From a virus (lineage: Duplodnaviria; Heunggongvirae; Uroviricota; Caudoviricetes): a stretch of 64,000 nt of DNA. The stretch lies in IMG/VR virus record IMGVR_UViG_3300021399_000116, positions 40,796-104,795 of that record, one strand, 5' to 3'. Positions 5,124 to 56,374 of the stretch are shown here, one piece after another. The position numbers and the translations under genes were made by a program. The notes beneath the pieces were generated by a model. That model worked only from the letters and a program-made list of their open reading frames with translations, did no database searches and was not told the origin of the DNA. The first letter of the stretch is position 1. Each line of letters opens with the position of its first letter.

Positions 5124-5543
5124 ATGAAATTGAGTGGTAAAGCTAATTTATACAACTCTTCTGGAATAGCCTTAGTACCTAGATTATTTAGTCCTTCTGG
5201 CGGTTTTAACAAGAAGAAAAATTTAGACAAGATAAATGAAAACATTAGAATTGCATTAATGACATCTAGAGGAACTCAGATAGGAGACCCTAGTTTTGGT
5301 TCTAATTTATATAGAATTTTAGGGTATGGTAAAACTACAGCTACAGCCTCTATGATAAGAACAGAAATACAATCTGTAATGTCAGATAGATTTCCAGAAC
5401 TTTCTTTGAATAGAATAGATGTAGATTTTGATGATGAAGGAGTCATAACTATCTATATAGTTTACTCTATAGAATACTCAAATGTTAATTCAAATGTAAC
5501 TTTAGAATTTATTAAAAATGAAGGAGGTTATACTTATGGCTAA
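5124..5543 (+). CDS. Baseplate wedge protein, gpW/gp25-like
   Basis: 139 aa. The DPSFGSNLYRILG motif is typical of the GPW/gp25 family, and the gene lies between the gpV-like and J-like genes. Confidence 0.65.
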   Translation: MKLSGKANLYNSSGIALVPRLFSPSGGFNKKKNLDKINENIRIALMTSRGTQIGDPSFGSNLYRILGYGKTTATASMIRTEIQSVMSDRFPELSLNRIDVDFDDEGVITIYIVYSIEYSNVNSNVTLEFIKNEGGYTYG

Positions 5544-7749
5544 TACAGTTGATGAAGCTTTAGACTATCAAGAAGAGTTGATTGAAGATATAAAGCATAC
5601 TTTAAGACTTAAAAAGTCCGGTTATTCAGATAATCCTGATGACCCTAATTATAGAAAACCTTATTTAGATGACTATGGAAATATATTAGAAACTCCTAAT
5701 GACTTAGGCAGTGTTTTATCAGTTTTAGATTTTATAGTAGAATATGCTAGGTCTAGAGAGAATGATGAACTTACTACATTAGCTAATGATTTAATAGAAC
5801 AGTGGTATAAAGTTTTTGAAATCAAAGACTCTGACAAAATAAAATTACCTTATAATAGAAAAGATTATTCTACAATTTTAGAGTATTTAAAACTTCAAGC
5901 AAAACAATTATCTAATGGAGAATGGGATGATTTTACAGATTCTGATATAGGAACAGTTTTATTAAAGTTAATGTCATTCTTAGCAGATATGGAGAACTAT
6001 AATGTAGATAAATCTATTGCAGAACTATATTTATCTACCTGTACAGAGAGGTCATCTGCATTACTTCTTTGTAAGTTAATAGGTTATAAGCCAAGACATT
6101 ATATGTCTGCTGTAACTACGATAAATTTAGGACCAGTAGAAGAAACTAATAATGTAGGAGAAATAGCTCCAGCATATATAGAAGATGGAACTATATTCCC
6201 TGCTGGTTCAACTTTTACAACTACTTCAGGACTTACTTTTACTACACTAAGAGATTATGAACTAGTAGAAGGCTACTGTACTTTGAAAGCTTATGAAGGT
6301 ACTTTAAAGACTGAAAGTTTTGCTTTATCAGATGTGTCTGAATTAGGAAGAATAGTACTTCCAGATTATGAAATTGCATTTAATACAGTTAAACTATTTA
6401 TAAATAATGAAGAATACACTCAAGTAGAAGATGTAGTAGTTAATACTGGAGATTTAGAATTTTCGGTACACTGCAATGAAGAAAGAGAAATTTACATACA
6501 ATTACCTAGTTTCTGGTCAGATATTTTAACTACTGCTAGTACTATAAAAGTTACTTATCTTCTAAGTAATGGAAAAGAAGGAAGAGTTGGAGCCGGTAAA
6601 GTAGTAGCATTTAACAGTGCTTGTACTGCTTCATCTTCAATAGAAATAATTTCTAATAGTAACTCAGTTGAAGGATATGACCCAGAAACTATTGCTGAAA
6701 TAAAAAGAAATGCTCCACTTTTTGCTAAAACTATGGATACTATAGTAACTATAAAAGACTTTGAGGATGTAGGCGGATTAGTAGATGGAATATCTGGTAT
6801 AAGAGCTTTAGATTATAATGACCCAGCATCTGGATTAATGCAACCTACGGCTGGACCTGGCGGATATGTAAATGACGCTTATAAAGTCAACATATATGTT
6901 TTACCGGACTGTAATGAGTGGGATGAAAATGAACCAGACAATAATTACTATAGAAATACAATTATAAAACGTAGACAAGATTGGGAATGGGATGATTTAC
7001 AATATGTAGCTGAAGAAGTAGAATATGTTTCACAGTCTCACGTAAATAACAATACTATAGTATTAGAAGGATTAGGAGCTAGCTATACTGACAAAGATGA
7101 CATAGTTTTAGGAGTAGACACTAGTAAAACAGCAACAAGTTTTTTGGCAACTTATGTAGAAGATAGTGATTCTTTGAACTCTGTTATTGGAGTTGCATAT
7201 ACTATAGATATTGTTGCAGATAATATAATAATCACTTTAAATGATAAATGGAGAGAGTATATGCCTACTACAACTTCTAAGTTTGATATATTCTTTAAGC
7301 AAGAACAAATTTTAACAGAAGCTGGTAGAAATCTTAAAAATACTATTACTAAGAAAAGACTACATTCTCTATGGATTACTTACTATGATGTAGATATAAT
7401 ACAACCTGAGATTGTTGTAGAAGTCTATATGGATAGTAGAAATACAGAATTTGAAAATGTAGCAGCTCAAGTAAAAGATTTAATATTAAAGCAATATTCT
7501 AGAGAATACTTAAAAGTAGGAGAACCAATATTTGCTAGTGTAATAGGTTCTAACATTTTAGATAATTTCGATTACATTAGATATGTAGAAGTTGGATTAC
7601 CTACTACTCAAGATGATTTGATAGAAGCTTTACCTAATGAATTTATAGATATAATACCACCTAATGTAAAAGTTTCTGCAATAGATTATAGAAATAAAAC
7701 TGCAGAAGCTGCTAACAGTACATACTACATAAGTTACAATCAAAATTAA
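5518..7749 (+). CDS. Baseplate J-like protein (large, possibly a J/I fusion)
   Basis: 743 aa ORF overlapping the gpW-like gene by 26 nt. It is called from position in the V-W-J order and from its size; no sharp motif was recognised. Confidence 0.5.
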   Translation: MKEVILMANTVDEALDYQEELIEDIKHTLRLKKSGYSDNPDDPNYRKPYLDDYGNILETPNDLGSVLSVLDFIVEYARSRENDELTTLANDLIEQWYKVFEIKDSDKIKLPYNRKDYSTILEYLKLQAKQLSNGEWDDFTDSDIGTVLLKLMSFLADMENYNVDKSIAELYLSTCTERSSALLLCKLIGYKPRHYMSAVTTINLGPVEETNNVGEIAPAYIEDGTIFPAGSTFTTTSGLTFTTLRDYELVEGYCTLKAYEGTLKTESFALSDVSELGRIVLPDYEIAFNTVKLFINNEEYTQVEDVVVNTGDLEFSVHCNEEREIYIQLPSFWSDILTTASTIKVTYLLSNGKEGRVGAGKVVAFNSACTASSSIEIISNSNSVEGYDPETIAEIKRNAPLFAKTMDTIVTIKDFEDVGGLVDGISGIRALDYNDPASGLMQPTAGPGGYVNDAYKVNIYVLPDCNEWDENEPDNNYYRNTIIKRRQDWEWDDLQYVAEEVEYVSQSHVNNNTIVLEGLGASYTDKDDIVLGVDTSKTATSFLATYVEDSDSLNSVIGVAYTIDIVADNIIITLNDKWREYMPTTTSKFDIFFKQEQILTEAGRNLKNTITKKRLHSLWITYYDVDIIQPEIVVEVYMDSRNTEFENVAAQVKDLILKQYSREYLKVGEPIFASVIGSNILDNFDYIRYVEVGLPTTQDDLIEALPNEFIDIIPPNVKVSAIDYRNKTAEAANSTYYISYNQN

Positions 7750-7756
7750 TTTTTTG

Positions 7757-7787
7757 AGACTCTAGAAAATTTTCTAGAGTCTTTTTC
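7757..7787 (+). terminator. Rho-independent terminator after the baseplate module
   Basis: Perfect 26-nt palindrome AGACTCTAGAAAA/TTTTCTAGAGTCT (13-bp arms) followed by TTTTC, 8 nt after the stop of the J-like gene. Confidence 0.65.
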
Positions 7788-7808
7788 ATGTCTTACAATT
7801 TAATTTCA

Positions 7809-7863
7809 TTTAATCTCATTTTAAATTTCTACAGATTTTGTTTAATCTCATTTAATCTCATTT
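7809..7863. repeat. Direct repeats (iterons) TTTAATCTCA x3, plus a partial fourth copy near 7927
   Basis: Copies at 7809-7818, 7841-7850 and 7851-7860, each followed by a T run, with AATCTCAGA at 7927. They lie in a 473-bp non-coding gap upstream of gene 8223. Confidence 0.6.
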
Positions 7864-8222
7864 TTTAAATTTTTGCTCACACTTTTAATTCTGTAAAATC
7901 TGAGAAATGTTATACTAAACCAGCACAATCTCAGACTAACTTTCTTCATTTTCATTTTAAATCAGCGAAGAATAAACCGACCGCCTTAAATTATATTGGG
8001 AGTGTGAATACTTCTCTTAAAATTTTTCGTTGAAAACATTTTATGGTAACATTTATTAACTCAAGTTTTAACTTCTGTTTTTATTTCTCAGTCTGTACGC
8101 GCACGCGCGCGAGTAAAATCTGTGATTTAGAACATTTCGATATAAATTATTTTAGAAGAAAAATCGAAAAACTTACATAATATAATTAAGATATAAGTTA
8201 AAAAGAAAAAGAGGCAATAACT

Positions 8223-9896
8223 ATGAAGAAAATAAAAAAGAAAGGAAATATTCTTTGGTTTGCACTACAATATGCAGAACCTCACTGTGAAATATCTAGA
8301 AATGGTGAAATAGTTGATGGTTATTTATTACAGTTTTATAGCCCTAAAACTTGTAATGAGTGGAATATGTTTGTAGAAAAAGATGAGTATGAGAAAAAAG
8401 AAGCTAAAAGAAGAAAATATAGTAGAGGTGTCTTAGACCGTAGTTCTAGAGAATACAAAGAAAGAGGAGAACAAATAGAAGAGCAAAGAAGAAAAGCTAG
8501 AGCTAAAAAAGCAGAGAAAAGAAGGTTAGCTAAGGAAAGAAGAGAAAGTGTGTCTGAAGAAAAAAGAAAATACTATGCAGATGTTAGAGAAAGATATTTG
8601 TGTAAAAAACTTGGCATTACTTCTTTAAAAGAAAGCAATGAATATTATAGACATGGAAATCATATAAGAAGATATAAAACTAAAAAACACAATGTAAAAG
8701 CTAGAGAAAGATATTATAAAAATAGAAAACCTTCTAATGTGTCTAAGGACTATAGCTTTATAATATCAGACAAACAAGAAGATGGCACTTTAGTCTTTAA
8801 TTCTAAAAAAGCAGAGACATTTGCAAAACAAATAGAATTACAATTTTTATGGAAGAAGACTACTATTAATTTCACTGACACAGATGGTTTAGATAGAATT
8901 GCAAGAGAGCCTAATGACATAGTTCCTCTAATTTTAGAAAACAGAGTAGACTTATCTAAAGGACTTTATTTTTCACAATATATACACATGAATATAAGTA
9001 GAACTAACCCTAAATATTATACTCATGATGACATAGACCTTTATCATGAAGTAAAAAGATATATGAGAAAAGGTTGTAAAGTTATTTTTTACATTAAACA
9101 TAAAGACCAGAAACAAGTTATTTTTGATACTGATAAATTAAGTCTATTTAAGAAAGTAATTGATTGGAATAGAGATGTAAGAGTAATAAGTAAATATCCT
9201 ATTAGAATAAAGTCTAAAAGATGGAACCTAGAAAGAGGTGGAGCTTGGAAGGATTTATCTAGATTAGTTTCTTTAGAACATGCAGAAAAATTCAAAAGTG
9301 AAACTTACTTTAGAAAACCTCTAAAAGATGCAGGAATAGTTAAATCTTGGGTAGACTTAGCTGCCTTTGAAAGAGGAGATAGAGCAGTACACGGCACAAT
9401 AAGAAGATTCAGTAAATTCTCTTATGATAAATGTCAAAAAGCATTAAAAGGAGAAACTATAAAATTAATTCTAAAGAAATTTCCAGATTTAATATTAAAC
9501 ACTACTCCTTCGCTAGAGAAATTTTATAGTTATATAGAAGACTCATTGAGAACATCTAGATTTCAACATAGGCTTACTAAAGTAGTTCAATCTTTTATAG
9601 CTTATATCTATGAAACTATGCTTAAAAATACTGGTATATTTAAGCAATTAACTACTAGAAAAGAGAGTGCTAAAGATTATTTAATGTATCTAAGAGATAC
9701 AGATTATAGTGAAAACGGGCATAACTATATACAAGGAAATAAAAATCCTACTCCAATAACATTTTACAGTTCAATTACTAAGCTTAAGGAAAGAGCTAGA
9801 AATATAAGAAATGGGTATGAGAAGGATATTTATGAAAAGTACATGACTGATAGAAGACTGTGGCATGCTTATGAGAAAGATGAGTGTGAAGCATAA
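8223..9896 (+). CDS. Hypothetical protein with a Lys/Arg-rich N-terminal region (weak candidate replication initiator or DNA-binding protein)
   Basis: 557 aa and the first gene after the iteron region. Residues about 55-170 are very basic (EKKEAKRRKYSRG...RKARAKKAEKRRLAKERRES). No catalytic motif was recognised. Confidence 0.45.
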   Translation: MKKIKKKGNILWFALQYAEPHCEISRNGEIVDGYLLQFYSPKTCNEWNMFVEKDEYEKKEAKRRKYSRGVLDRSSREYKERGEQIEEQRRKARAKKAEKRRLAKERRESVSEEKRKYYADVRERYLCKKLGITSLKESNEYYRHGNHIRRYKTKKHNVKARERYYKNRKPSNVSKDYSFIISDKQEDGTLVFNSKKAETFAKQIELQFLWKKTTINFTDTDGLDRIAREPNDIVPLILENRVDLSKGLYFSQYIHMNISRTNPKYYTHDDIDLYHEVKRYMRKGCKVIFYIKHKDQKQVIFDTDKLSLFKKVIDWNRDVRVISKYPIRIKSKRWNLERGGAWKDLSRLVSLEHAEKFKSETYFRKPLKDAGIVKSWVDLAAFERGDRAVHGTIRRFSKFSYDKCQKALKGETIKLILKKFPDLILNTTPSLEKFYSYIEDSLRTSRFQHRLTKVVQSFIAYIYETMLKNTGIFKQLTTRKESAKDYLMYLRDTDYSENGHNYIQGNKNPTPITFYSSITKLKERARNIRNGYEKDIYEKYMTDRRLWHAYEKDECEA

Positions 9897-14292: not shown

Positions 14293-14997
14293 ATGATTTT
14301 ATTAGACCCTTGTATAGAAGTTGAATCTTTCAATGGAAAAGAAATAATGAAGAAATTAGAAAAAGCATGCAGAACATGTTATCGTTCTGAAGGAAATATT
14401 ACAGAAGATAGTTATAAAAATTTACTTAAGAATTGTATAAACAGAGGACATGAATCAGTGTTAGAGCATGAAAAAATTACAATAACAATGATTTGTGATA
14501 TTGGAGTATACAAAGATTTAACAAGACATAGATTAGCAAGTTATTCAATTGAAAGCACAAGATATTGTAACTATAGTAAAGATAAATTTGACAATCAAAT
14601 TAAATTTATAAAACCAATATTTTATAAAGACTGGAAAAATGAAGACTTAAATGAAGTAATTAAAGACAAAGATTTATACAAGTGTTATTTATGGGAAAAT
14701 TGTATGCAAAATATAGAGCAAGACTACAATGCAATGTCTGAAGTTGGAGCATTACCTGATGAAATGAGAATGCTACTTCCTCATAGTACAGCAGCTAAAG
14801 TTACAATGACAGCTAACATAAGAGAATGGAAACACATTTTATCACTAAGATGTAGTAATCACGCTCATCCAGCAATACAACAATTATTAATACCATTTTT
14901 ATTAAAACTTAAAGAAGAAATGCCTGAAATTTTTAATGATGTAGACTACAATGAAAATTTTCCAGAAGAAAAATATGCAAAATTAGTTATTTTATAG
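14293..14997 (+). CDS. thyX: Flavin-dependent thymidylate synthase ThyX
   Basis: LTRHRLASYSIESTRYCNY matches the ThyX RHRxxSxxxxSxRY signature. Length is 234 aa. Confidence 0.8.
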   Translation: MILLDPCIEVESFNGKEIMKKLEKACRTCYRSEGNITEDSYKNLLKNCINRGHESVLEHEKITITMICDIGVYKDLTRHRLASYSIESTRYCNYSKDKFDNQIKFIKPIFYKDWKNEDLNEVIKDKDLYKCYLWENCMQNIEQDYNAMSEVGALPDEMRMLLPHSTAAKVTMTANIREWKHILSLRCSNHAHPAIQQLLIPFLLKLKEEMPEIFNDVDYNENFPEEKYAKLVIL

Positions 14998-15403: not shown

Positions 15404-16720
15404 ATGGAAGAAAAAATGAGTTATGATGAATGGTTAGACTCTAGAACTTACGAATACTTTATTGATTTAGAGAAAAAAAGACAGGATGAAAATATTGAAC
15501 TAATAGCAAGTGAGAATTTTCCAAGTGAAAGGATTCTAAATGCTGCAGGAAGTATACTCACAAATAAATACTCTGAAGGTTATCCTGGAAAGAGATATTA
15601 CGGAGGATGTTATCATATAGATGAAATAGAACAAAAAGCTATAAATGATGCTTGTAAATTATTTCATGCTAATTTTGCAAATGTACAACCTCATTGTGGA
15701 AGTTCAGCAAATCAAGCTGTATATAGAGCATTATTAGAACATGGAGACACAGTTTTAGGGATGGACTTAGGAGCTGGAGGACATTTAACACATGGACATA
15801 AGATGAGTTTTTCAGGACAAGACTATAACATAGTTTCTTATGGTGTAAATGAGGAAGGTTATATTGACTTAGAAGACTTTACTAAGAAGTTATATGAGTA
15901 TGAACCTAAGATGGTAATTGTAGGAGCTAGTTCATATTCTAGACTAATTGATTATGAAATATTTTTAAATATACTATATAACTTTGAGAAAGATAAAGGA
16001 TGGAGACCATATTATATGGTAGATATGGCACATGTTGCAGGACTAGTAGCTGGAGGAGTTCATCCTAATCCAGTAAATTATGCAGATGTAGTAACTTCTA
16101 CTACTCATAAAACATTAAGAGGACCTAGAGGTGGACTTATTCTTTGGAATAGTAATGAATTAACAAAAAAGATAAATTCTGCTGTATTTCCTGGAATACA
16201 AGGTGGTCCATTAGAGCATATTATTTGTGCAAAAGGAATATGTTTTGAAGAAGCAATGAGACCGGAATTTGAAAGATATGCTAATCAAGTAATAGCAAAT
16301 TCAAAAGTATTTGCTAATAAGTTTATAGAAAATGGGTGGAAAGTGGTTTCTAATGGAACTGATAATCACATGTTTGTTTTAAACGTTATGGACTCAATTG
16401 GATTAACAGGAAAAGAAGTAGAGACAGAATTAGATAAAATAAACATAACAGTAAATAAGAATCAAACTCCTAATGACCCATTACCTCCATTAAAATCTTC
16501 TGGAGTAAGAATTGGAACTGCAGCAATGACTACAAAAGGCTGGTTAGAAGAAGATTTTGAAGAATTAGCTCAGACTATAATGACTTTTCTAGATGAAGTT
16601 GCTATGGAAGCAAATGGAGAAGCTAGAGGAATCTCAGTAGATTATGATGAATATAAAGAAAGAGTAAAATCTCTTTCAAATAAAGTTAAAGAAAGAAATA
16701 ATCACAAAAAAGAGGTATAA
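15404..16720 (+). CDS. glyA: Serine hydroxymethyltransferase
   Basis: Near-textbook SHMT motifs: IELIASENF, YSEGYPGKRYYGGC, VQPHCGSSANQAV and the PLP-lysine segment VVTSTTHKTLRGPRGG. Confidence 0.95.
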   Translation: MEEKMSYDEWLDSRTYEYFIDLEKKRQDENIELIASENFPSERILNAAGSILTNKYSEGYPGKRYYGGCYHIDEIEQKAINDACKLFHANFANVQPHCGSSANQAVYRALLEHGDTVLGMDLGAGGHLTHGHKMSFSGQDYNIVSYGVNEEGYIDLEDFTKKLYEYEPKMVIVGASSYSRLIDYEIFLNILYNFEKDKGWRPYYMVDMAHVAGLVAGGVHPNPVNYADVVTSTTHKTLRGPRGGLILWNSNELTKKINSAVFPGIQGGPLEHIICAKGICFEEAMRPEFERYANQVIANSKVFANKFIENGWKVVSNGTDNHMFVLNVMDSIGLTGKEVETELDKINITVNKNQTPNDPLPPLKSSGVRIGTAAMTTKGWLEEDFEELAQTIMTFLDEVAMEANGEARGISVDYDEYKERVKSLSNKVKERNNHKKEV

Positions 16721-16722
16721 TA

Positions 16723-17403
16723 ATGAATAGAAATGATTTAAGAAGATTAGAAAAAGCAGCTAGAGAGAAAGATAAAAAGTATTTAGCCGAGTGGGCAGAT
16801 GATTTTGAAAATCAGTTAAGATATTTAATGAGAAAAGAGTATGAAGCTAGATATCAAGATGAAATAGAGAGTTCAATTGAAAACTTTTTATTAGCTACAG
16901 CTTATACTGCAGTGTTTAGTGAGTCAACTAATCTTCTTAAGTCTGGTAATCTTCCAGATTTTATGGAAGATTTATTTGTTACTATTGACTTATTTAGAAC
17001 TGGAGAGTATAAACCTAAAGAATATGAAGAAATATTAAAAGAAAATGGTTTTGAAATGGATAAAATGAAATATAAGCCTAGAGAACATAAAGTTATTACA
17101 CTGTGTGGAAGTACTAAATTCAAGGAAGATTTTCTAAGAAAGCAAGAAGAACTTACTCTAAAAGGTTATATTGTTTTATCTGTAGGTGTATTTGTTCATG
17201 ATGATAACATAGAGGTAACTGAAGAGCAAAAAGTAGAGTTAGATAAAATACATAAAGATAAAATAAGAATGTCTGATGCAATTTATGTAATAAATAAAGA
17301 TAATTACATAGGAGAGTCTACTAAATCAGAAATTGAATTTGCTAAAGAATTAAATAAAACAGTGATGTATATGGAGGAAGAGGAAAAGTATGGAAAGAAT
17401 TGA
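16723..17403 (+). CDS. Hypothetical protein with a C-terminal nucleoside 2-deoxyribosyltransferase-like (DUF4406-type) region
   Basis: C-terminal VITLCGSTKF...LTLKGYIVLSV...DAIYVINKDNYIGESTKSEIEFAKELNKTV fits the Rossmann pattern of the Ndt/DNPH1-like superfamily. Assignment is from memory of the family consensus only. Confidence 0.35.
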   Translation: MNRNDLRRLEKAAREKDKKYLAEWADDFENQLRYLMRKEYEARYQDEIESSIENFLLATAYTAVFSESTNLLKSGNLPDFMEDLFVTIDLFRTGEYKPKEYEEILKENGFEMDKMKYKPREHKVITLCGSTKFKEDFLRKQEELTLKGYIVLSVGVFVHDDNIEVTEEQKVELDKIHKDKIRMSDAIYVINKDNYIGESTKSEIEFAKELNKTVMYMEEEEKYGKN

Positions 17404-17869
17404 TAAAATAAACTACTACTTGAATATCGCTGAGTCTGTCTCAGAAAGAAGCACTTGTTTAAAGAAACATTGGGGTTCTATAATTGTTAAAAATGATGAA
17501 ATAATATCTACTGGCTTTAATGGAGCTCCTAGAGGAGTTAAAAGTTGCTTAGAATGTAATAAGTGTAATAGAGAAAATTCTGAAAGAGGTTCAGATTATA
17601 ATCAATGTTTGGCTGTACATTCAGAGCAAAATGCGATAATACATGCTAGTAGAAATCAAATGCTGGAATCAGACATGTACTTAGTAGGAGTAGATTTTAC
17701 AAATAACAATAAATATGTAGAAAACGCAGCTCCTTGCGCTTTATGCAAAAGAATGATAATAAATGCAGGCATTAAAAGAGTAATAGTTAGAGACAATAAA
17801 CTAGAGTATAGAACACTGAATGTAGATGACTGGGTAAAAGATTCTAATATTCTATTAGGAGGTTATTAA
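17390..17869 (+). CDS. dCMP deaminase (ComEB-type)
   Basis: The zinc-ligand motifs HSEQNAIIHA and PCALCKRMIINAGI are spaced as in the cytidine/dCMP deaminase fold. Confidence 0.85.
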   Translation: MERIDKINYYLNIAESVSERSTCLKKHWGSIIVKNDEIISTGFNGAPRGVKSCLECNKCNRENSERGSDYNQCLAVHSEQNAIIHASRNQMLESDMYLVGVDFTNNNKYVENAAPCALCKRMIINAGIKRVIVRDNKLEYRTLNVDDWVKDSNILLGGY

Positions 17870-21090: not shown

Positions 21091-21404
21091 CACTTCAAAA
21101 CTTGAAAGATGAAATTACTGAAAAAGGTGAAATTCCTATGTATGGTATGAAATTTAGACTTCTAGATGATGATTTAGTTAGGATTTTTATTTCTAATAAT
21201 AAATTTGAAATGAGATATGATAAATTTGTAGGTACATCAGACCTAGGTTTTTCAACTAATATTATGAAGACAGAGTTAACTAAATTAACTATAGAGAAAG
21301 ATGAAAAACTTCCTCATAAGATGATTTTAGTAATTGATTTAAGACCTAAGAAAAAGAAGAAAGTAATTGATACAGGAATAAATGCAAGAATGAAATTAAA
21401 TTGA
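21087..21404 (+). CDS. Hypothetical protein
   Basis: 105 aa. Confidence 0.3.
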   Translation: MTLQNLKDEITEKGEIPMYGMKFRLLDDDLVRIFISNNKFEMRYDKFVGTSDLGFSTNIMKTELTKLTIEKDEKLPHKMILVIDLRPKKKKKVIDTGINARMKLN

Positions 21405-21418
21405 TTGGAGGTAATATT

Positions 21419-22585
21419 ATGAAAGCTTTGGCAATGTATATATTTTGTGGAAGCTTAGGAATAGGAATAATGCAAGCAGGTTTTAAGATAGATAAAGTAT
21501 TAGAAATAACTGATGAAATGTTGGAAGAAAATTCTAAACACTTTATTCATAACTATCCAGATATTCCCGTAATAAAGCCTTCATTATGGAATAATACTAT
21601 TTATAAGAATGAATTATTCAAAGAAAATTATGATTTATTAGCAGGTAATCCACCTTGTTCTGGACTATCTCAAATAAATAGACATGCTTCTTCAGACAAT
21701 CTTACAAATCAATATATGTATAATTTTATAGATACAGTATCTTATGTACAACCTAAAACATTCCTAATGGAGAATGCTCCAACTTTAATTAGTAGAGGCA
21801 AAGTAATTTTAGACTATATGGTATCAATTCTTAGCAGTGATTACTACATATACATAATAAGAGACTATGCTGGAAATCATAAAGTTCCAATGAAAAGACA
21901 AAGAACAATAGTACTTGGTTTTAGGAAAAATTTCTTTGAAGGAGTTCCAGTCTTAAAAGATTATGAAGAAGTTACAGGTGAAATTACTGCTGGTGAAGTT
22001 TTATCAGAGATTTCTGAAAATTCTCCTAATATGTATTTAGAAGAGAATAGAAGTTGTAAAGATTTAGAGAAATATTTAGAATATATACAAGTAAATAAGT
22101 CAATAATGCATTCTTTATCAGAATTTTCTGAAGATTTCATAAATAATTTAGATATATCTGAAAAAAGAAAGAAAAATATTTTAACTTTAAAAAGAAAGAT
22201 GAATGCTGGTAAAGGAGTATTTGATAAAACACCGTTTAAACTTGATAAAAATTTGGTAGCTCCTAGTATGACATCTTTATCAGAATTTATAAATCCAGTA
22301 TATGACAGACATTTATACATAAGAGAATATGCAAAACTTATGGGATATCCAGATGATTTTGAATTTGTAAAAGATGCAAAAGTTCCATACATTCAGTCTA
22401 TAGCTCAGGGAGTTCCGGTGAATTTTGCAAAATGGGCAGCTATGAATGTAAAAGATGCTCTAGAGAAGAAGTCTAAATTTTTAAAAGACATAGATATTGT
22501 AGTAGAAAATAGATGTAATCCTAAGAAGATAAAAACAATGTTTTATTCTAAGGAGAAATTTTTCAATACTGATAATATATGCTAA
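21419..22585 (+). CDS. DNA (cytosine-5)-methyltransferase-like protein
   Basis: The track begins at 21401, but RBS GGAGGT precedes the ATG at 21419. Motif I-like MYIFCGSLGIG, motif IV NPPCSGLS (PC catalytic Cys) and ENAP (ENV-like). Confidence 0.65.
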   Translation: MKALAMYIFCGSLGIGIMQAGFKIDKVLEITDEMLEENSKHFIHNYPDIPVIKPSLWNNTIYKNELFKENYDLLAGNPPCSGLSQINRHASSDNLTNQYMYNFIDTVSYVQPKTFLMENAPTLISRGKVILDYMVSILSSDYYIYIIRDYAGNHKVPMKRQRTIVLGFRKNFFEGVPVLKDYEEVTGEITAGEVLSEISENSPNMYLEENRSCKDLEKYLEYIQVNKSIMHSLSEFSEDFINNLDISEKRKKNILTLKRKMNAGKGVFDKTPFKLDKNLVAPSMTSLSEFINPVYDRHLYIREYAKLMGYPDDFEFVKDAKVPYIQSIAQGVPVNFAKWAAMNVKDALEKKSKFLKDIDIVVENRCNPKKIKTMFYSKEKFFNTDNIC

Positions 22586-27584: not shown

Positions 27585-28088
27585 ATGATAGTTTGTTTAG
27601 AAGGACCAGATGGCTCAGGAAAAAGTACTTTAGTAAGATATCTTCAAGAAAAATATAATATGAAAATGAAACATTCAAGTTCTGAAACTAAAAATGATTT
27701 TCAATATCATTTAGATTTATTAGAAGAAGACAATGTAGTCTTAGATAGAGCTAATCTTGGAGAAATAGTATATCCAGAAGTATATGGTAGAAATCCTAAA
27801 ATGACTTGGGATAATCAAATAGATTTTATGAATGCTTGCATGGACAAAGGTGTAATTTATATAATCTTTTACGCATCAGACTTTAATACTTTAAAAGAAA
27901 GATTATTTAAAAGAGGAGATACTCAACAAGTGCTAGAAAATGCAGAGAAAATAAATTTAGTATTTAAAACTTTAGCACACATGTTTTCAGAACTTTATCC
28001 TAATGTGTATGCATTAGATATTTCTAAGGAGTCAGACCAGATTAAATTTTTCGAAGATATTTTAAAGGAGAAAACAGATGGAGAATGA
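27585..28088 (+). CDS. Deoxynucleoside monophosphate kinase (thymidylate kinase-like P-loop kinase)
   Basis: MIVCLEGPDGSGKST is the Tmk/dNMP-kinase P-loop. 167 aa, sitting in the nucleotide-metabolism cluster. Confidence 0.6.
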   Translation: MIVCLEGPDGSGKSTLVRYLQEKYNMKMKHSSSETKNDFQYHLDLLEEDNVVLDRANLGEIVYPEVYGRNPKMTWDNQIDFMNACMDKGVIYIIFYASDFNTLKERLFKRGDTQQVLENAEKINLVFKTLAHMFSELYPNVYALDISKESDQIKFFEDILKEKTDGE

Positions 28089-28317
28089 GTTTTATGAACA
28101 TTTAGTAATTTCTGGGAGAGATGAGAATTTTCAAAACGATTTAACTAAAGCTTCTATAGCAGGTTGGGAAACAGTTCATATAAATTCTTTTCCAGTAGAA
28201 AAGCCAGATATGCTAAAACATGGCTATACTATAGAATTAATCTATACAGCAGTTTTAAGAAGATTAAGAAGCAGAGAGGAGTTAAAAGATGATAACAGAA
28301 AACTTGAAACAACATAG
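28078..28317 (+). CDS. Hypothetical protein
   Basis: 79 aa overlapping both neighbours. Confidence 0.3.
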   Translation: MENEFYEHLVISGRDENFQNDLTKASIAGWETVHINSFPVEKPDMLKHGYTIELIYTAVLRRLRSREELKDDNRKLETT

Positions 28318-29302
28318 AGAAGAACAGTGGACAGAACAATATTATAAAGAATCAAAAGAAATAATACAAAATAAAGATATACTTCCGATTGTTGTTCCAT
28401 CGTATAGAAGAGGATATGCTGCTTCTACTTTACAGGCTTTGAAAGATTTTCCTGAGTTAAAAGTAGTAGTATTTATATATGAAGAAGAGTTTGATTTATA
28501 TAGACATTTATTTGAAACATATCCTCATATACAATATCAACTATGCTCAGGATTTAGAGGAATTGCTCCTAAAAGAAAGTATATTACTGAAAGAATGGTA
28601 CAATTAGGAATGCCAGAATTTTTTGAGATAGATGATGATGCAACAGCATTTTTCTATACAAAACATGGTAGTATGAAAAAAGACCCTACAAAGTACAAAG
28701 CAGAGAAGACCCAGATTGACATACAAGACTTTTTCAGAATGTTCCAATATATTATTAAATATAAAGCGCTAGAAAAAATAGACTTATGCGGAATAATTTT
28801 TGATAACGGAGCTTGGGCTCAAGATTTAAGAACTTTACCTGATATTATTTATATCGGCGGACAAGCTTTTTGCTTTTATTTAGATGCAAAGGCTTGCTTA
28901 GACAAAGGATTGAACTATTATGTAGAAGATAAAATTTGGGAAGATTTTGATTTTTCAATGCAAGTAATAAATGCAGGGTTAAACTCTTGTCAAATAAGAT
29001 ATTTAACTGCTTCTACACCTACTATGACTCCCGGAGATTCAGTCGCTACTGCAGCTGGTTCACCTTGGGCACAGAAATCAGTAAATCTATATAAAAGATG
29101 GGGAGACTTGATTAGGTTTAAACCTATGAAGGGTGAGTTGAATGCTAAAATAAAATGGACTACTATTAGAAATCAACTTAAGAAAGACGGTCATTTAACT
29201 ATCACTTATAATCCAGTTTATATGGAGTTTATAAATAGAAATGATTATGATGGATTAACACATTATATAGAACAAGAAAAGAATAAAAATGAGGAGGTAT
29301 AA
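28289..29302 (+). CDS. Putative GT-A fold glycosyltransferase
   Basis: LPIVVPSYRRGYAASTLQAL resembles the GT2 N-terminal motif (IIPxYN), and EIDDDA is a DxD-like motif. The gene is adjacent to the dCMP hydroxymethylase. Assignment is weak. Confidence 0.4.
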   Translation: MITENLKQHREEQWTEQYYKESKEIIQNKDILPIVVPSYRRGYAASTLQALKDFPELKVVVFIYEEEFDLYRHLFETYPHIQYQLCSGFRGIAPKRKYITERMVQLGMPEFFEIDDDATAFFYTKHGSMKKDPTKYKAEKTQIDIQDFFRMFQYIIKYKALEKIDLCGIIFDNGAWAQDLRTLPDIIYIGGQAFCFYLDAKACLDKGLNYYVEDKIWEDFDFSMQVINAGLNSCQIRYLTASTPTMTPGDSVATAAGSPWAQKSVNLYKRWGDLIRFKPMKGELNAKIKWTTIRNQLKKDGHLTITYNPVYMEFINRNDYDGLTHYIEQEKNKNEEV

Positions 29303-39944: not shown

Positions 39945-40859
39945 ATGCCATTATTTACTAATTATGGAAAACCTAAAGGACTTATAGTAAATTTCATGAA
40001 AGATATAGAACAAAGATATATACCAGCTCTCAACCAGCAGCTAGATACAAATATAAATAACTATCCATCTCTTACTAGAGAGACTTATGCGGTATATCAA
40101 GATGAAGAACAAGGAGTGTCAATAGAAATATCTAGTAATCATAGAGATATAGAAAATAGAGGAGACTTATTCGTAGCTGTATCTTATGATGGAATGAAAG
40201 AAGATGCTGGTATAATAGATTTAGACAATTTACAAGATGCTGTAAATATCACTCAATATTCTCTTCAAGAATTAGGCTTTAAAACACCTGAAGATAAGAA
40301 AAATGATGAAGCTGATGCAGAAGCTAAAGCAATGCAAGATAAAATAAACAAAGACTTAGAGGATAGAAAGAAAGCTGAAAGAAGAGATGAAATACTAAGA
40401 CAAGCAGAAGAAAGAAATCGAGGGACAGAAAACCAGTCTGACATAGAGACAGAACCTGAAGAAGACAATTATGAAGAAGAAAAAGATGAGTATGTTTCAG
40501 AGTTAAACAAAAAACTAACTTTTTTAAGTAAAGAAGCAGAAGGTGCTGTTGCAGAATTAGAATGGCTTACTCTTCCTGATAATATTCAAGGAAATTCTGC
40601 TGAATTTATACATATAGAGATGAATTTTACTCATGTGTCTGGTGAAAACTTTTTAATAGAAACTAAAAGAATAAATCCTAAAATACAGACTATTTGTAAT
40701 ATTCAAGATTGTATTGGATATGCAAATAAAGTGTCTGACAAACTTAAAGTAACTCCAACTATTATAATGAAGGATGAAAGAGGAAGAGATTTAGAACTTC
40801 CTAAGAATATGAAGGAACCTGAGGATGACTCAGATGATGATTTTTCAATTAATATATAA
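39945..40859 (+). CDS. Hypothetical acidic coiled-coil protein (scaffold-like?)
   Basis: 304 aa with RBS AAGGAGGT. The central region EADAEAKAMQDKINKDLEDRKKAERRDEILRQAEERN is charged and helical. Confidence 0.4.
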   Translation: MPLFTNYGKPKGLIVNFMKDIEQRYIPALNQQLDTNINNYPSLTRETYAVYQDEEQGVSIEISSNHRDIENRGDLFVAVSYDGMKEDAGIIDLDNLQDAVNITQYSLQELGFKTPEDKKNDEADAEAKAMQDKINKDLEDRKKAERRDEILRQAEERNRGTENQSDIETEPEEDNYEEEKDEYVSELNKKLTFLSKEAEGAVAELEWLTLPDNIQGNSAEFIHIEMNFTHVSGENFLIETKRINPKIQTICNIQDCIGYANKVSDKLKVTPTIIMKDERGRDLELPKNMKEPEDDSDDDFSINI

Positions 40860-41918: not shown

Positions 41919-41947
41919 TTTACAAACTTAAAATAATATGATATAAT
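41919..41947 (+). promoter_or_regulatory. Sigma-A-type promoter (TTTACA-N17-TGaTATAAT), near-duplicate of 32824-32852
   Basis: TTTACA at 41919-41924, a 17-nt spacer, then TGATATAAT at 41939-41947. The flanking sequence CTATTTACAAA.TTAAAATAATATG is shared with the 32821 copy. Confidence 0.5.
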
Positions 41948-41977
41948 TATAATAAGAACGAGGTTATTTTAAAGGAG

Positions 41978-42829: not shown

Positions 42830-43219
42830 ATGAAGAAGATAGTTACAGATAATACTACAATTTTTGTAAATCATATTAAATTTATACGAATTATGGAAGC
42901 TGGAGTAAGTCAAACTAAAGAGAAAAGATATACAGTAACAGCAGTTTTAGAAGATTGTACTGATATAGATATTGATAATATAAATTGCATAATATTAAAT
43001 TATGATGAAAACGGAGAGTTACAGAAAACTAGAGAAGAAGCTCAATTATTTAAAGATTTTTTAGAAAGAAAACTAGATAATCAATGGGAGACTATATTTA
43101 CTTTAGATGTATTAAAAGAAGTAAATGACTATATAAACTATAGTAAACAAGAGCATAAATCTACGATGGTAGATATTAGTAAATTAAAATTAAATGAAAA
43201 AGGAGAAGTTGTACGATGA
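42830..43219 (+). CDS. Hypothetical protein
   Basis: 129 aa with RBS AGGAGGA. Confidence 0.4.
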   Translation: MKKIVTDNTTIFVNHIKFIRIMEAGVSQTKEKRYTVTAVLEDCTDIDIDNINCIILNYDENGELQKTREEAQLFKDFLERKLDNQWETIFTLDVLKEVNDYINYSKQEHKSTMVDISKLKLNEKGEVVR

Positions 43220-44589
43220 AGATTTTATCAGAAAGAGACCCTTTAGAAGTATTTTCAGAAGCTTCTAAAATATTAAACAATGCAGTAGAGCATACTTTAG
43301 GTCCGGATGGAACTAATACTGCAGTTCACTTTCAAAATTTTTACAACATAATAAACGATGGAAAATCTATAGTAGAGCAATTAACATCTTTAGACCCAGA
43401 AATAGCTCCTGCTATGGAAACTTTAAAGCAATCAGCTTTTGAAACTAATAGAAAAGCAGGAGATGGAACTACAAGTACTATAATTATAATGAACCAACTA
43501 ATACAAGGAGCTAAAAAATACTTAGAAGAAAATCCTAAGAAAAGTCAAGTACAAGTAGCTAAAAGAATTTTAGATGTAGAAAAAAGATTACAAGATTTAA
43601 TTCTAAAGCAAAAAATAGAGATAGATAATAAATTATATGAGAAAGTCGCTAAAGTGTCTCTAGGGTCATCCTCATATTCACAGATGCTATCAGAAGCTTT
43701 TACTTTTTTGAATGGAGAAGGAGTTCCAGCTTTAGTTAAATCAGACATACCCGGAGTAGAATTAGAAAAGATAGATGGAGTAAATCTAACTAAAACTAGT
43801 GTGGTAAGCTCAATGTTTATAGATTTATTACCTAGTAAAGAACTTAAAGATGTTCAAGTTATTACTTTATTTCAAGTAATAGATAGATTTGAAGAAATGT
43901 TTCAACTAGTAAAATTGTTAAATCAAAATAAAGAAAAATATACAGTCTTATTATATAATGAAATAAGTTCTTCAGCTTTAGAAAATTTATTGTTTAATCT
44001 TTCACAAGATAAAAGTAAGATAGTTCCTATATGTATGAAAGACTATGGAAAAGACATGAATAATATGTTAGATGAAATAGCTAAATATACTGAAACAGAG
44101 ATTATAGATGGAGGAAGCTTAAAAACTACAGATATTTCTAAGATAAAAATAGGAAAAGTAGATAAGGCTATACTTTCTCAAAATTCTTTAGTTTTAATCA
44201 AAGATGAAGTTCCAGAGTTTGAGTATAAACTTATTTCTAGAAAAGCTTGTTTGATTAGAGCAGGAGGAGCTACTAAAATAGACATGGAAGACACTTATAG
44301 AAGACTAGAAGATGCTATTTATTCTCTTGCAGGAGCTATTAAAAACGGAGCATTTTTTGGTGGCTATGGTGTACCTTATAGAAGCTTAGCAGATGATGTA
44401 GATGATGTAGATGTTCCTAAGTTTATAGTAGACTCTCTAAAGTACATAAATCTTAGTATTTTTGATGAAAATGCAGACTCAGATGCAGTAGACTCTGCTT
44501 TAGTAATTTCAGAGGTAATTCGTAATTCTTTCTTTACTGCAGCACAAGTAATTACTACAAATGCACTAATCTATGACAATATAAGATAA
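43216..44589 (+). CDS. Chaperonin Cpn60/GroEL-family homologue (short, 457 aa)
   Basis: ASKILNNAVEHTLGPDGTNTAV...DGKSIVEQL...AGDGTTSTIIIMNQLIQGAKKYL is collinear with the GroEL equatorial domain (VKVTLGPKGRNVVL...DGVTVAKEI...AGDGTTTATVLAQAI), including the GDGTT nucleotide-binding loop. Confidence 0.75.
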   Translation: MKILSERDPLEVFSEASKILNNAVEHTLGPDGTNTAVHFQNFYNIINDGKSIVEQLTSLDPEIAPAMETLKQSAFETNRKAGDGTTSTIIIMNQLIQGAKKYLEENPKKSQVQVAKRILDVEKRLQDLILKQKIEIDNKLYEKVAKVSLGSSSYSQMLSEAFTFLNGEGVPALVKSDIPGVELEKIDGVNLTKTSVVSSMFIDLLPSKELKDVQVITLFQVIDRFEEMFQLVKLLNQNKEKYTVLLYNEISSSALENLLFNLSQDKSKIVPICMKDYGKDMNNMLDEIAKYTETEIIDGGSLKTTDISKIKIGKVDKAILSQNSLVLIKDEVPEFEYKLISRKACLIRAGGATKIDMEDTYRRLEDAIYSLAGAIKNGAFFGGYGVPYRSLADDVDDVDVPKFIVDSLKYINLSIFDENADSDAVDSALVISEVIRNSFFTAAQVITTNALIYDNIR

Positions 44590-54602: not shown

Positions 54603-55343
54603 ATGATACAAATGCTTGGTAGTTCTAGACTACTTAATAAGGCTATTCAAGAGAATGTTAATTCTACGAATACTAATAGAATTATAGAACTATATGGTAT
54701 AAGTTCTATTGATGAATTGACTGATGTTCCATTATTAGTTAAATCTTCTGTATCTGGCACAAGTGCTACTACTTATATTGAGATAACTAGCAGCGGAACA
54801 ACTATAGATACAGTAGAACTTAATGTTTATAACAATGGTGCAATAGATGTACCATTTTCAAACTGGGTTATAGCAAACCAATTGTACTTTTTAGTATATG
54901 ATTTTGATAATAGTTGCTTTAACGCTTTTCCAGTAGGTAGCGGAGAATCAGCTGCTCCCCCTCCTAGTACTTTAATGGCCTTATCAGATGATATCTTGAC
55001 TTTAACAAATTCTTCTACAGCTTCTGAGATTGAAACAGCCTTTGGAGATGTTGACAGTGAAGAGACTTTTATGGATTGGGTTAGCAGTATGTCTGGTCAA
55101 TTAGTTATTTTTGATTTAGATTATAGTATTGTAAATTATATAACAATAAATAACTATAGAATGTCTAGTGATGGACTACACTACTCAATTTATTTTAATA
55201 CTTATAATGTTAATAGCAACAATACTTTAGAATTAGTTTACAAAGTTATGACTTTTAATAAAACTGCAACTGCTGATACTATATTTAGTTCAGTATCAGT
55301 GAAAGAAACTACTATATCTGATGGAAATGGGGTGGCATACTAA
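54603..55343 (+). CDS. Hypothetical protein
   Basis: 246 aa. Confidence 0.35.
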   Translation: MIQMLGSSRLLNKAIQENVNSTNTNRIIELYGISSIDELTDVPLLVKSSVSGTSATTYIEITSSGTTIDTVELNVYNNGAIDVPFSNWVIANQLYFLVYDFDNSCFNAFPVGSGESAAPPPSTLMALSDDILTLTNSSTASEIETAFGDVDSEETFMDWVSSMSGQLVIFDLDYSIVNYITINNYRMSSDGLHYSIYFNTYNVNSNNTLELVYKVMTFNKTATADTIFSSVSVKETTISDGNGVAY

Positions 55344-56374
55344 TGGGACAAGTTTATGTAGATGAAAATAGTTTAAGTTCAATAGGAAATGCAATCAGAA
55401 ACATAACTAACACAACTAATAATTTTTATCCTAATCAAATGGGACCAGCTATAGAAAATATCAGTATGGGTCCAGAAATTACAGATGCTAGTTACTTATT
55501 TTATCATGGAGCTAGAATGTCTCAGTATATAGATTTAATAAACTGTATATCTCCTAATGTACATTACACTTCAGAAATGTTTTCAGGACTTAATTTTTCA
55601 AATTACCCATTTGAAATCCCTATTTTTAATACAAGTAATGTAGTACAAGCTTCCAATATGTTTTTTAATTATATAATGCTAAGAAATGCTCCTGCATTTA
55701 ATTTTAGCAGTCTTACACAGGCTCAATATATGTTTTCTAACTGTACTAACTTAACAGATATTCCTAATTTTACTACTAGTGATAGGTTACAAAATTTGTG
55801 CGGTATTTTTAGATATTGTTATAGTATGACGAATACCAGTAATATAAGTTATTGGAATACAGAAAATGTTACTAACATAGACCAGATGTTTCTATTTTGT
55901 AATCACATATCAACAATTAATGATTTGAATTTCCCTAAAGTTACTAATTTAAGAACTTTTTGTGGTGGTTGTCATTCACTTGTTTCATTAAATAATTGCA
56001 ATTTTAGTAATGCACAGAACTTGTGGCAATCTTTTAGTCAGTGCTGGAATTTACAAGCTATACCAGAAATTCATTCAGACAATATTATTAATATGTGTGA
56101 AGCCTTTGTAAGTTGTTCTAATTTAACAGAAGTTATACAATATAATACTTTAAAAGTAAAAGATATGTGTAGAACTTTTCAGTTCTGTAATAATTTAAGT
56201 AATGCAAGTATACAGAATATAATTAATATGTGTTTAAATAGTAATATAACAACTGCTAGTTATAAAAATCTAACAGTTAATAATGGTAATAGCCCACTTT
56301 ATCAGACTAAATTTAATAATTCATACTATCAAGATAGATGGCAAGAACTTACAGATGCTGGTTGGACATATTAG
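55343..56374 (+). CDS. BspA-type leucine-rich repeat (LRR_5) protein
   Basis: Tandem ~23-aa repeats of the pattern NxxxMFxxCxxLxxIP (for example FSNCTNLTDIPNFTTS, FLFCNHISTINDLNF, FVSCSNLTEVIQYN). The last 20 codons are nearly identical at DNA level to 63940-64000. Confidence 0.55.
   Translation: MGQVYVDENSLSSIGNAIRNITNTTNNFYPNQMGPAIENISMGPEITDASYLFYHGARMSQYIDLINCISPNVHYTSEMFSGLNFSNYPFEIPIFNTSNVVQASNMFFNYIMLRNAPAFNFSSLTQAQYMFSNCTNLTDIPNFTTSDRLQNLCGIFRYCYSMTNTSNISYWNTENVTNIDQMFLFCNHISTINDLNFPKVTNLRTFCGGCHSLVSLNNCNFSNAQNLWQSFSQCWNLQAIPEIHSDNIINMCEAFVSCSNLTEVIQYNTLKVKDMCRTFQFCNNLSNASIQNIINMCLNSNITTASYKNLTVNNGNSPLYQTKFNNSYYQDRWQELTDAGWTY

Follow-up and report, generated by a model that had tools for sequence, protein, structure and literature searches.

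A conserved intergenic control region in a T4-like gut phage and its possible role as a replication origin

No replication origins or early control regions are known from the large and so far uncultured phages of T4 type that infect gut Firmicutes. The question is raised by a 473-bp non-coding gap, positions 7750-8222 of a 64,000-nt stretch of a Caudoviricetes genome (IMG/VR record IMGVR_UViG_3300021399_000116, positions 40,796 to 104,795; this whole stretch is hereafter called the window). A preliminary description had placed the gap between the late (baseplate) module and the first gene of the replication module and had described it as an origin-like region with a palindrome, a set of direct repeats and an alternating purine/pyrimidine tract. 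Coordinates and annotation bear out the extent and placement of the gap, and all three features are present at the positions given for them. Judging from comparison with its relatives, the gap is a conserved, single-copy and functionally constrained cis control region at the junction of the baseplate and the recombination-replication genes. Its best single reading, which we put forward tentatively, is that of a replication origin resembling oriF and oriG of phage T4, with a promoter and an unwinding element. The key elements, however, are not the repeats and the palindrome; the core that is conserved throughout the clade consists instead of a GTAACA box, an A/T tract and the alternating tract, a combination missing from the preliminary description.

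The gap is flanked by a baseplate-wedge gene (5518-7749; 743 aa, phrog_219) and by an open reading frame (ORF) at 8223-9896, whose product is referred to here as the 8223 protein. All ORFs of at least 80 aa that do not overlap a larger + strand ORF lie on the + strand, bar two short unannotated ones near the window ends. A search of 50,697 deposited phage genomes with the gap (at the nucleotide level) and with the 8223 protein gave zero matches, and IMG/VR searches with single proteins gave none either; the portal protein found just distant members of the T4 superfamily at <36% identity. The phage encodes a Portal_T4-type portal protein, a clamp loader, a UvsX-like RecA and gp46/gp47-like proteins, and further a 5'-3' exonuclease, a Toprim fragment and a sigma factor with region 2 only. 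Beside these stand genes of nucleotide metabolism (ThyX, SHMT, dCMP deaminase, dUTPase and a ThyA-like enzyme) and of DNA modification (a C5-cytosine methyltransferase and a TET-associated glycosyltransferase, TAGT). Relatives were found in rumen, goat-gut and human-gut assemblies, two of their contigs being binned as 'Bacilli'. As judged from these sequences, the source phage is an uncultured, distant T4-like myovirus of the ruminant and human gut. Beyond the close clusters of the 8223 protein, nine further lineages were reached through the neighbouring RecA-like protein, and 11 lineages were compared in total. All 11 share the order gp25-like gene, baseplate-wedge gene, gap of 265-500 bp, homologue of gene 8223, RecA-like gene and gp46-like gene, with one or more small ORFs sometimes lying between the 8223 homologue and the RecA-like gene. 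A small ORF within the gap of the window (8043-8180) was rejected as a gene; it is not conserved, and its ATG reads CTG in lineage L001.

Across these 11 lineages, the gap follows one layout. The sequence GTAACA, usually the 3' arm of a hairpin, is followed by a T-rich A/T tract, then by an alternating tract, and then by the gene of a basic protein without relatives outside the clade (ORFan). Of all hexamers, GTAACA alone has one copy in the gap of each of the lineages examined. In a k-mer enrichment over nine gaps it occurred once per gap and was 20-fold enriched, and the longer GTAACAC was found in six of the nine gaps and nowhere in their flanks. Two gaps added later also contain GTAACA once each, and in all 11 lineages it lies 127-215 nt from the ATG. 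In nine of them it forms the 3' arm of a local hairpin, with DNA-fold z-scores of -1.3 to -6.3. The 5' arm, loop and register of this hairpin vary between lineages, and all pairs in the following forms are Watson-Crick: GTGTTA-N3/4-TAACAC, GTTAC-N5/11-GTAAC, GTTACCG-AAA-CGGTAAC and a form in which CTGTTACC and GGTAACAG enclose a 27-nt insert. The A/T tract of the relatives is T-rich, 62-84 nt long and contains 1-6% G; in L088, L089, L090 and L096 neither a longer A/T-only run nor a less stable 80-bp stretch exists within ~6 kb on each side of it. In the A/T and alternating tracts, closely related strains differ by indels of whole repeat units, (CG)2 between L090 and L102 and (TTA)3 between L104 and L105, the latter with 3.4 kb of identical flanks. 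Both tracts thus behave as simple-sequence repeats, so their composition and alternation appear to be constrained, and their exact length does not. The module is single-copy in the window. The two parts most suggestive of an origin, its hairpin and its extreme A/T tract, have degenerated there; instead, the window and L001 have 120-220 additional nt, in which AATCTCA boxes and the blocks GACCGCCTTA and TGGGA are found.

Several relatives have, in addition, a short G+C-containing hairpin with a GAA/GAAG-type loop between an upstream promoter box and the GTAACA hairpin, among them L095 (4065-4081, GAGCGAAGCTC), L091 (4205-4221, GAGCAAAGCTC) and L090 (2711-2727, TCCGAAGGA). The loop in L095 resembles the GCGAAGC mini-hairpin, which has been described as unusually stable. 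The counterpart in the window is merely the unpaired CAGCGAAG at 7964-7971.

The alternating tract, TGTACGCGCACGCGCGCG, occupies exactly 8094-8111. It comprises 18 bp with seven CpG and is the longest alternating purine/pyrimidine run of the window, and no 40-bp duplex of the 64 kb is more stable. The preliminary description was right that the alternation is perfect and very unusual for this base composition: CpG stands at 0.25 of its expected frequency in the window, CGCGCG occurs nowhere else in it and in none of 100 shuffles, and the tract holds four of the six CGCG tetramers in the 64 kb. Taking CpG-rich, perfect alternation over at least ~12 bp as the mark of Z-DNA-prone sequence, the tract is predicted to be Z-prone, as had been supposed. 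The 18-mer TACGCGCACGCGCGCGAG is fully retained between the window and L001, in a gap of 58% identity. In eight of the 11 lineages an alternating run ends the A/T tract, with sequences that differ between them, such as (CG)n, CACG and TACACGTACACGTA (Table 1); L094 retains merely the 7-nt ATATACG, and L092 has one transition in the tract that preserves the alternation. Transitions keep the alternation automatically, so part of this pattern could be the mutational legacy of an ancestral (CG)n. With (CG)n and (CA)n tracts that form Z-DNA, the element shares 18 bp of perfect alternation, seven CpG steps and an alternation kept in sequence-divergent relatives. It differs from them in that its Z-proneness is predicted only and in that its persistence may partly owe to transition-biased mutation. 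We know of no alternating Z-prone tract with a defined role in any phage origin or promoter. The most unusual aspect of the locus is this conserved alternating CpG tract in a CpG-avoiding genome that encodes cytosine-modifying enzymes.

The same 18-mer occurs in 78 other IMG/VR loci (L010-L087), which were rejected as homologues; they are mostly high-GC phages, and none is a low-GC relative. In most of these unrelated contigs the 18-mer reads in frame as Y-A-H-A-R-E according to a reading-frame analysis, which points to coincidence, and we take these codons to be a conserved motif of the small terminase. Several palindromic tetramers are avoided in the window (GATC, 1 against ~160 expected; TCGA, 14 against 160; ACGT, 26 against 160), and AGCT is enriched (363 against 160). 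Together with the CpG deficit, this avoidance suggests restriction avoidance or a methylation-driven mutation bias.

Selection on the gap is visible at short range. Between the window and the close strain L006, positions 7913-8222 show three changes in 310 nt at a divergence of 4-5% in the flanking genes; this segment evolves ~4x slower than the adjoining coding DNA. The direct repeats upstream of it have changed at 0 of 40 positions, against 13 of 71 in the spacer around them (p=0.004). Both counts argue for purifying selection. At longer range, in the comparison with L001, identity has fallen to 58% in the gap and to 67% in gene 8223 (61% for the protein); the two diverge together and much faster than their neighbours, which remain 85-88% identical at the nucleotide level. 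Such a pattern resembles that of matched pairs of cis site and protein.

The gap opens with the palindrome, whose arms AGACTCTAGAAAA/TTTTCTAGAGTCT (13+13, 7757-7782) are followed on the 3' side by the T-run TTTTT. It is the sole terminator-like site from a scan of 7000-9000. With a stem of 12-13 bp, four G-C pairs and TTTTT (7756-7787), right after the stop codon at 7749, it has the make-up of a Rho-independent terminator; a hairpin with a T-run sits at the same place in L001 and L006, and hairpins follow the baseplate gene in other relatives. The perfect 26-nt palindrome was therefore correctly recognized as a terminator, albeit one of ordinary type, but it was not correctly called bidirectional. 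It should act in one direction, on the + strand only, because its 5' flank is also a T-run and a minus-strand RNA would get an A-run after the stem. In L088 (3716-3770) and L097 (1885-1990), G+C-rich islands are inserted in the same gap just after the terminator. They are full of perfect hairpins such as GTGAGCGCTAGCGCTCAC, lie visibly far above the 27% G+C of those genomes and matched nothing in Rfam; a miniature mobile element or a small structured RNA could account for them.

At its other end, the last 80 bp of the gap form a promoter for gene 8223, of a type that recurs in the phage; its box, CATAATATAA (8176-8185), lies inside a 19-mer identical in L001 and has no -35 element. Four of the five exact + strand copies of this box in the window sit 30-47 nt before start codons (8223, 9923, 30397 and 30757), and the fifth (33552) precedes a tRNA region. 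Copies with one mismatch precede the portal gene at 36915 and an ORF at 46131, and no copy has a -35 element. The boxes at 8176, 9892, 30352, 30727, 33552, 36870 and 46100 yield the consensus (A/G)CATAATATA(A/T)T. Boxes of this type are present in the gaps of the relatives, and in L088, L089, L090, L091, L094, L095 and L104 one lies 40-100 nt upstream of the module. In the window, the candidates upstream of the module are weak and poorly conserved (TGtTATACT at 7908 and TTGGGA-16-TAAAAT at 7996). The sigma factor of the phage (26428-26997, 189 aa), which adjoins the clamp loader, matches region 2 only and is gp55-like. By analogy, the box that recurs before replication and structural genes probably does in this clade what the late promoter does in T4. 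A classical promoter of the form TTTACA-17-TATAAT is found elsewhere, at 41919-41950. We also considered a sigma-70 promoter of the discriminator type starting at the CG tract and rejected it; it is absent from the window and L001, and the hits in the relatives are what chance gives in A/T-only DNA.

The direct repeats had been described as typical of initiator iterons. Direct copies are indeed present, with spacings of 10, 32 and 10 between the four repeats, of which the one at 7799 has one mismatch; they can alternatively be parsed as one 24-nt unit present twice, 42 bp apart. Allowing up to one mismatch, TTTAATYTCA is not over-represented in the 64-kb window (15 found against 24 expected). 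Its core AATCTCA, in contrast, occurs four times in the 473-nt gap against ten times in the other 63.5 kb (P ~1e-6), always on the + strand, and this is the only such cluster in the window. Iteron origins carry at least three regularly phased direct repeats of ~12-22 bp that bind an initiator, next to the initiator gene and to an extremely A+T-rich element. The cluster here is significant and protected between strains, but its units are 10 nt long, it is specific to few lineages, and the adjoining protein has no similarity to an initiator. The four copies do not align with L001, which has three AATCTC boxes of its own (P ~1e-4); L094 has two, L089 a single copy and the others, apart from the window and L006, zero. 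Since clusters are found in 3 of 11 lineages only, the repeats are not the conserved heart of the element.

The large basic protein encoded downstream had been suggested as the cognate initiator. Its basic nature (isoelectric point (pI) 9.7) and lack of assignment were confirmed, but it resembles neither an initiator nor any known family. The protein had no match in Pfam, PHROGs or PDB, be it to an initiator, helicase, primase or other protein, and a profile built from 12 family members found none in PDB or Pfam. The protein has just two close clusters among 5.8 billion proteins, and its family has 11 representatives among 1.8 billion. An AF2 model (mean predicted confidence, pLDDT, of 46) was unusable. 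The product of gene 8223 is a possible cognate binding protein of the gap, by inference only.

How, then, might the gap work? Two origins of T4, oriF (uvsY) and oriG (34), are R-loop origins in which a promoter is followed downstream by an unwinding element rich in A+T (Kreuzer and Brister 2010, PMC3016281). We propose that the module would act at the DNA level as an origin of this kind. Transcription into or out of the region would supply RNA, negative supercoiling or both, and the A/T tract would open. The GTAACA hairpin could form in the single strands and mark the site for a protein, and the opened zone would be bounded downstream by the very stable, Z-prone CG tract. The AATCTCA repeats may be accessory sites for a lineage-specific protein, for which the fast-evolving basic product of gene 8223 is an obvious candidate. 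In the lineage of the window, the repeats together with the AT-rich promoter segment 8125-8205 may replace the decayed hairpin and A/T tract. The features that speak for an origin are the single-copy site at the head of the replication/recombination module, the putative upstream promoter, hairpin, melting tract and stable boundary, the compositional constraint, the protected direct repeats and the co-divergence of the gap with the adjacent ORFan.

The likeness to oriF and oriG extends to the T4-like set of replication and recombination genes, to a promoter that in the relatives is followed within ~100 nt by an A+T-rich tract, locally the least stable site, to the constraint on composition and to the boundary of transcription units beside recombination genes. 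T4 tolerates a heterologous sequence in place of its unwinding element, and a constraint on composition over sequence fits this behaviour (PMC3016281). There are differences as well. The promoter here is not a MotA-type middle promoter, the module is conserved across the clade, the A/T tract of the window is short and ordinary, and an R-loop is putative here; moreover, the A/T tract is flanked by the GTAACA box or hairpin and by the alternating CG tract, neither of which is mentioned in the review of T4 origins (PMC3016281). With T4 oriE, plasmid and lambdoid iterons, the gap shares clustered same-strand direct repeats beside an AT-rich segment and a gene of the replication module, repeats that are conserved between close strains and whose core recurs in some relatives; it differs in having 10-nt units (or two of 24 nt, 42 bp apart) in place of three to five of 12-22 bp, in clusters restricted to 3 of 11 lineages and in an adjoining protein unlike any known initiator. 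The 12-nt direct repeats of oriE are themselves of unproven role (PMC3016281).

A number of observations weigh against an origin. The GC skew, which had been suggested as a check, is positive throughout the window and monotonic; all genes lie on one strand, the skew is uninformative, and neither GC skew nor AT skew changes sign in the window. The A+T-rich tract expected of an oriF/oriG-type origin is found in the relatives (62-84 nt, length-polymorphic) and not in the window or L001, where the segment from GTAACA to the CG run measures 44-46 nt with ~25% G+C, an ordinary composition; GTAACA itself is unpaired in both (z-scores of -0.7 and +0.1, respectively). The gap of the window lacks any A/T-only run of at least 20 nt, and its least stable segment is surpassed in instability by at least 12 other places of the window. 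The earlier claim of unwindable AT-rich flanks around the alternating tract holds in part: on the downstream side, the 80-bp segment 8125-8205 is the least stable part of the gap and falls within the 0.7% of windows with the lowest stability, but the 44 nt upstream have an ordinary composition; 7797-7916 lies at the 5th percentile of instability. The repeats, with units shorter than those of classical iterons, cluster in few lineages, and the 8223 protein matches no initiator. Given its fixed orientation, its near-constant distance to the ATG and its position downstream of promoters, the element is likely to be transcribed and might function as RNA. On its + strand the tract has many T and few G, and an R-loop formed from + strand RNA would have a weak rU:dA hybrid. 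Finally, an origin conserved in sequence across a whole clade would be unusual for this type of phage; to our knowledge, the origins of T4 share no motif, and T4 has no equivalent of the flanking GTAACA box or CG tract. Of the preliminary origin interpretation, the conserved control region remains and the origin is still the best single reading, but the terminator proved ordinary, the repeats lineage-specific and the initiator unrecognisable. In a bolder form of the proposal, hairpin, melting tract and Z-prone CG tract would be the replication-initiation switch of the whole clade of T4-like gut phages, which strikes us as quite improbable. The (CG)n would then be kept deliberately in a CpG-purged genome, and cytosine modification, favouring Z-DNA, could gate the opening of the origin; modification of the tract is possible because the phage encodes the C5-cytosine methyltransferase and the TET-associated glycosyltransferase. 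The clade-specific basic ORFan would represent a new kind of initiator that reads both the GTAACA hairpin and the AATCTCA repeats.

Alternatively, the module could be transcribed from the upstream promoter within a long 5' untranslated region of the ORFan mRNA and act as an RNA leader or translational operator. Its hairpin would nucleate the binding of a repressor, perhaps the basic 8223 protein itself, and the long unstructured U/A-rich stretch behind it would take up further copies cooperatively, much as T4 gp32 represses its own mRNA. We regard this as doubtful, although the fixed orientation and the narrow range of distances to the ATG in the 11 lineages agree with it, as do the promoter boxes upstream of the module in most relatives and the hairpin, whose arms of just 5-8 bp would fit single-stranded RNA over cruciform extrusion and covary around a fixed 3' arm sequence. 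The layout is like that of the T4 gene 32 operator, in which ~28 nt of folded 5' sequence precede >40 nt of less structured A/U sequence (PMC535899), and likewise lies upstream of a replication/recombination gene. In the gap, however, the A/U tract stops 35-130 nt short of the ribosome-binding site (RBS), unlike in the gene 32 operator, with a GC tract and often a promoter behind it; there is no pseudoknot, and the protein is neither a recognisable single-stranded DNA-binding protein nor identified as binding RNA. No promoter box lies between module and RBS in L088, L089, L090, L094 and L095, but one does in six lineages (the window, L001, L097, L091, L096 and L104), and the proximal mRNA would then lack the module. 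The CG tracts have purine/pyrimidine alternation in common and not an RNA fold. A structured RNA in 7900-8125 was tried and rejected, as the sequence folds no better than its shuffles (z-scores of -0.39 for the window and +0.12 for L001) and the covariation term of the consensus fold of the two is just -0.99, which is negligible. In Rfam 15 the gap matched nothing above 19 bits and the nine relatives nothing at all, and the matches in the window were to a tRNA family at two sites elsewhere.

The module might instead control transcription or topology without any part in replication, its supercoil-responsive motifs serving as a torsional buffer, insulator or UP-like element and the AATCTCA boxes as operators through which a phage transcription factor times the downstream genes. 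A conserved terminator borders the module on one side and a conserved promoter on the other, and such a role would go well with a constraint on composition but not on length, with alternation retained in differing sequences, with repeats kept between strains while spacers drift, and with a phage-encoded sigma factor and a promoter class lacking a -35 element. In several relatives, -10-like hexamers would put a transcription start near the end of the A/T tract, yet such hits are expected by chance in A/T-only sequence, and the window and L001 have none. No other promoter in the 64 kb has such a module, although a general device should recur, and the alternation could partly reflect transition-biased decay of an ancestral (CG)n; overall we consider this explanation unlikely. 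A genome terminus or packaging signal, with concatemers cut at the GC-rich tract or its surroundings, is very improbable. GC-rich cohesive ends are known in other phages, and two assemblies end in the gap, the 129-kb contig behind L102 (IMGVR_UViG_3300045988_110271) and the 12-kb contig behind L004, whose position 1 lies inside the homologous gap. The former stops inside the second of two duplicated promoter boxes (L102 1-20) and, being located at a repeat, its end is probably an assembly break of a typical kind. At least ten other contigs of 19-133 kb, including most of the long ones, read through the gap, and two 132.5-kb goat contigs break elsewhere, at different places. The genes beside the gap are a baseplate-wedge gene and an ORFan, with no terminase gene identified next to it, and phages with T4-type portals package by a headful mechanism. 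It is just as hard to believe that, terminator and promoter aside, the gap is a mostly non-functional spacer whose repeats and simple-sequence tracts are products of slippage. The A/T and CG tracts do behave as microsatellites between strains, and the hairpin and A/T tract of the window have decayed without apparent harm. But the CG tract has kept its place from lineage to lineage despite the CpG deficit, its 18-mer is identical in a gap that otherwise is not, GTAACA is invariant in 11 lineages, and 7913-8222 changes more slowly than coding DNA.

If the T4-type origin is the right reading, a module recognisable by sequence at a fixed, clade-wide site would help to find where replication starts in phage genomes from metagenomes, to give an abundant ORFan family a function and to test whether Z-prone, possibly hypermodified CG tracts play a physiological role in a bacterial virus. 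Should the gap be an RNA leader or a promoter insulator, it would be a more ordinary regulatory region, still a well-defined one.

Table 1 Features of the gap and its surroundings in the window, and alternating tracts of the compared lineages.
Feature	Position	Strand	Remarks
Intrinsic terminator of the baseplate operon	7757..7787	+	Perfect 13+13 palindrome 7757-7782, then TTTTT
Four direct repeats TTTAATYTCA, iteron-like or operator-like	7799..7860	+	Starts 7799, 7809, 7841, 7851
Fifth AATCTCA box, AATCTCAGACTA	7927..7938	+	Block identical in the L001 lineage
L001-identical block AATCTCAGACTA	7927-7938		12 nt
Block GACCGCCTTA, conserved between window and L001	7979..7988	+	Alignment of the two lineages
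GTAACA box, TGGTAACAT	8044..8052	+	GTAACA at 8046-8051
T-rich spacer, 55% T, 25% G+C	8052..8095	+	Short degenerate counterpart of the 62-84-nt tract of relatives
Alternating purine/pyrimidine CpG-rich tract	8094..8113	+	Alternation 8094-8111; 18-mer TACGCGCACGCGCGCGAG at 8096-8113 identical in L001
L001-identical CG block	8096-8113		18 nt
Promoter region	8140..8188	+	23-mer 8140-8162 and 19-mer 8170-8188, both identical in L001
L001-identical block	8140-8162		23 nt
L001-identical block	8170-8188		19 nt
RBS AAGAGG and ATG of gene 8223	8208..8225	+	
557-aa basic ORFan, pI 9.7	8223..9896	+	Family confined to the phage clade; syntenic in relatives covering the position
Alternating tract, window and L001			The 18-mer, 18 nt
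Alternating tract, L090			TATACGCGCGCGCGCGTGCACG, 22 nt
Alternating tract, L102			Like L090 minus (CG)2, 18 nt
Alternating tract, L091			TACGCGCGCACATATA, 16 nt
Alternating tract, L104			ATATACACGTACACGTA, 17 nt
Alternating tract, L097			CGCGCGCG, 8 nt
Alternating tract, L096			Shorter remnant

Elsewhere in the window, the genes for modified pyrimidines form a set with a C5-cytosine methyltransferase, TAGT, a ThyA-like enzyme, ThyX, SHMT, dCMP deaminase, dNMP kinase, dUTPase and a MazG-like protein (at 14293-14997, 15404-16720, 17390-17869, 21401-22585, 27585-28088, 28289-29302, 29650-30348, 30757-31209 and 32901-33206). No TET/JBP domain was found among the ORFs scanned, and the target sequence of the methyltransferase could not be inferred from its relatives in PDB. 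The SHMT gene is intact in the window (15404-16720) and split in L001 (17239-19106), where a GIY-YIG homing-endonuclease ORF immediately precedes the split, and in L093 (6968-8255), which points to mobile-endonuclease or intron activity in the clade. A 114-aa protein encoded at 29305-29649 has a strong match to a Tad2-like domain (Thoeris anti-defence 2; E=3e-21), a domain that in L094 is fused to SHMT.

The 1.35-kb non-coding stretch 33567-34916 contains two tRNA sites. ARAGORN reported tRNA-Thr alone (34077-34151) and missed a second tRNA-like gene at 34597-34660, which was recognized by Rfam (47 bits). Unusual cargo of the window comprises an SPFH/flotillin-like protein, a Cpn60/TCP-1-type chaperonin, and kelch-repeat and DUF285 proteins (31259-32752, 43216-44589, 59713-61101 and 55343-56374). 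One relative encodes a dockerin-bearing tail protein (L090 1-2454), which hints at a cellulosome-producing Firmicute as host.

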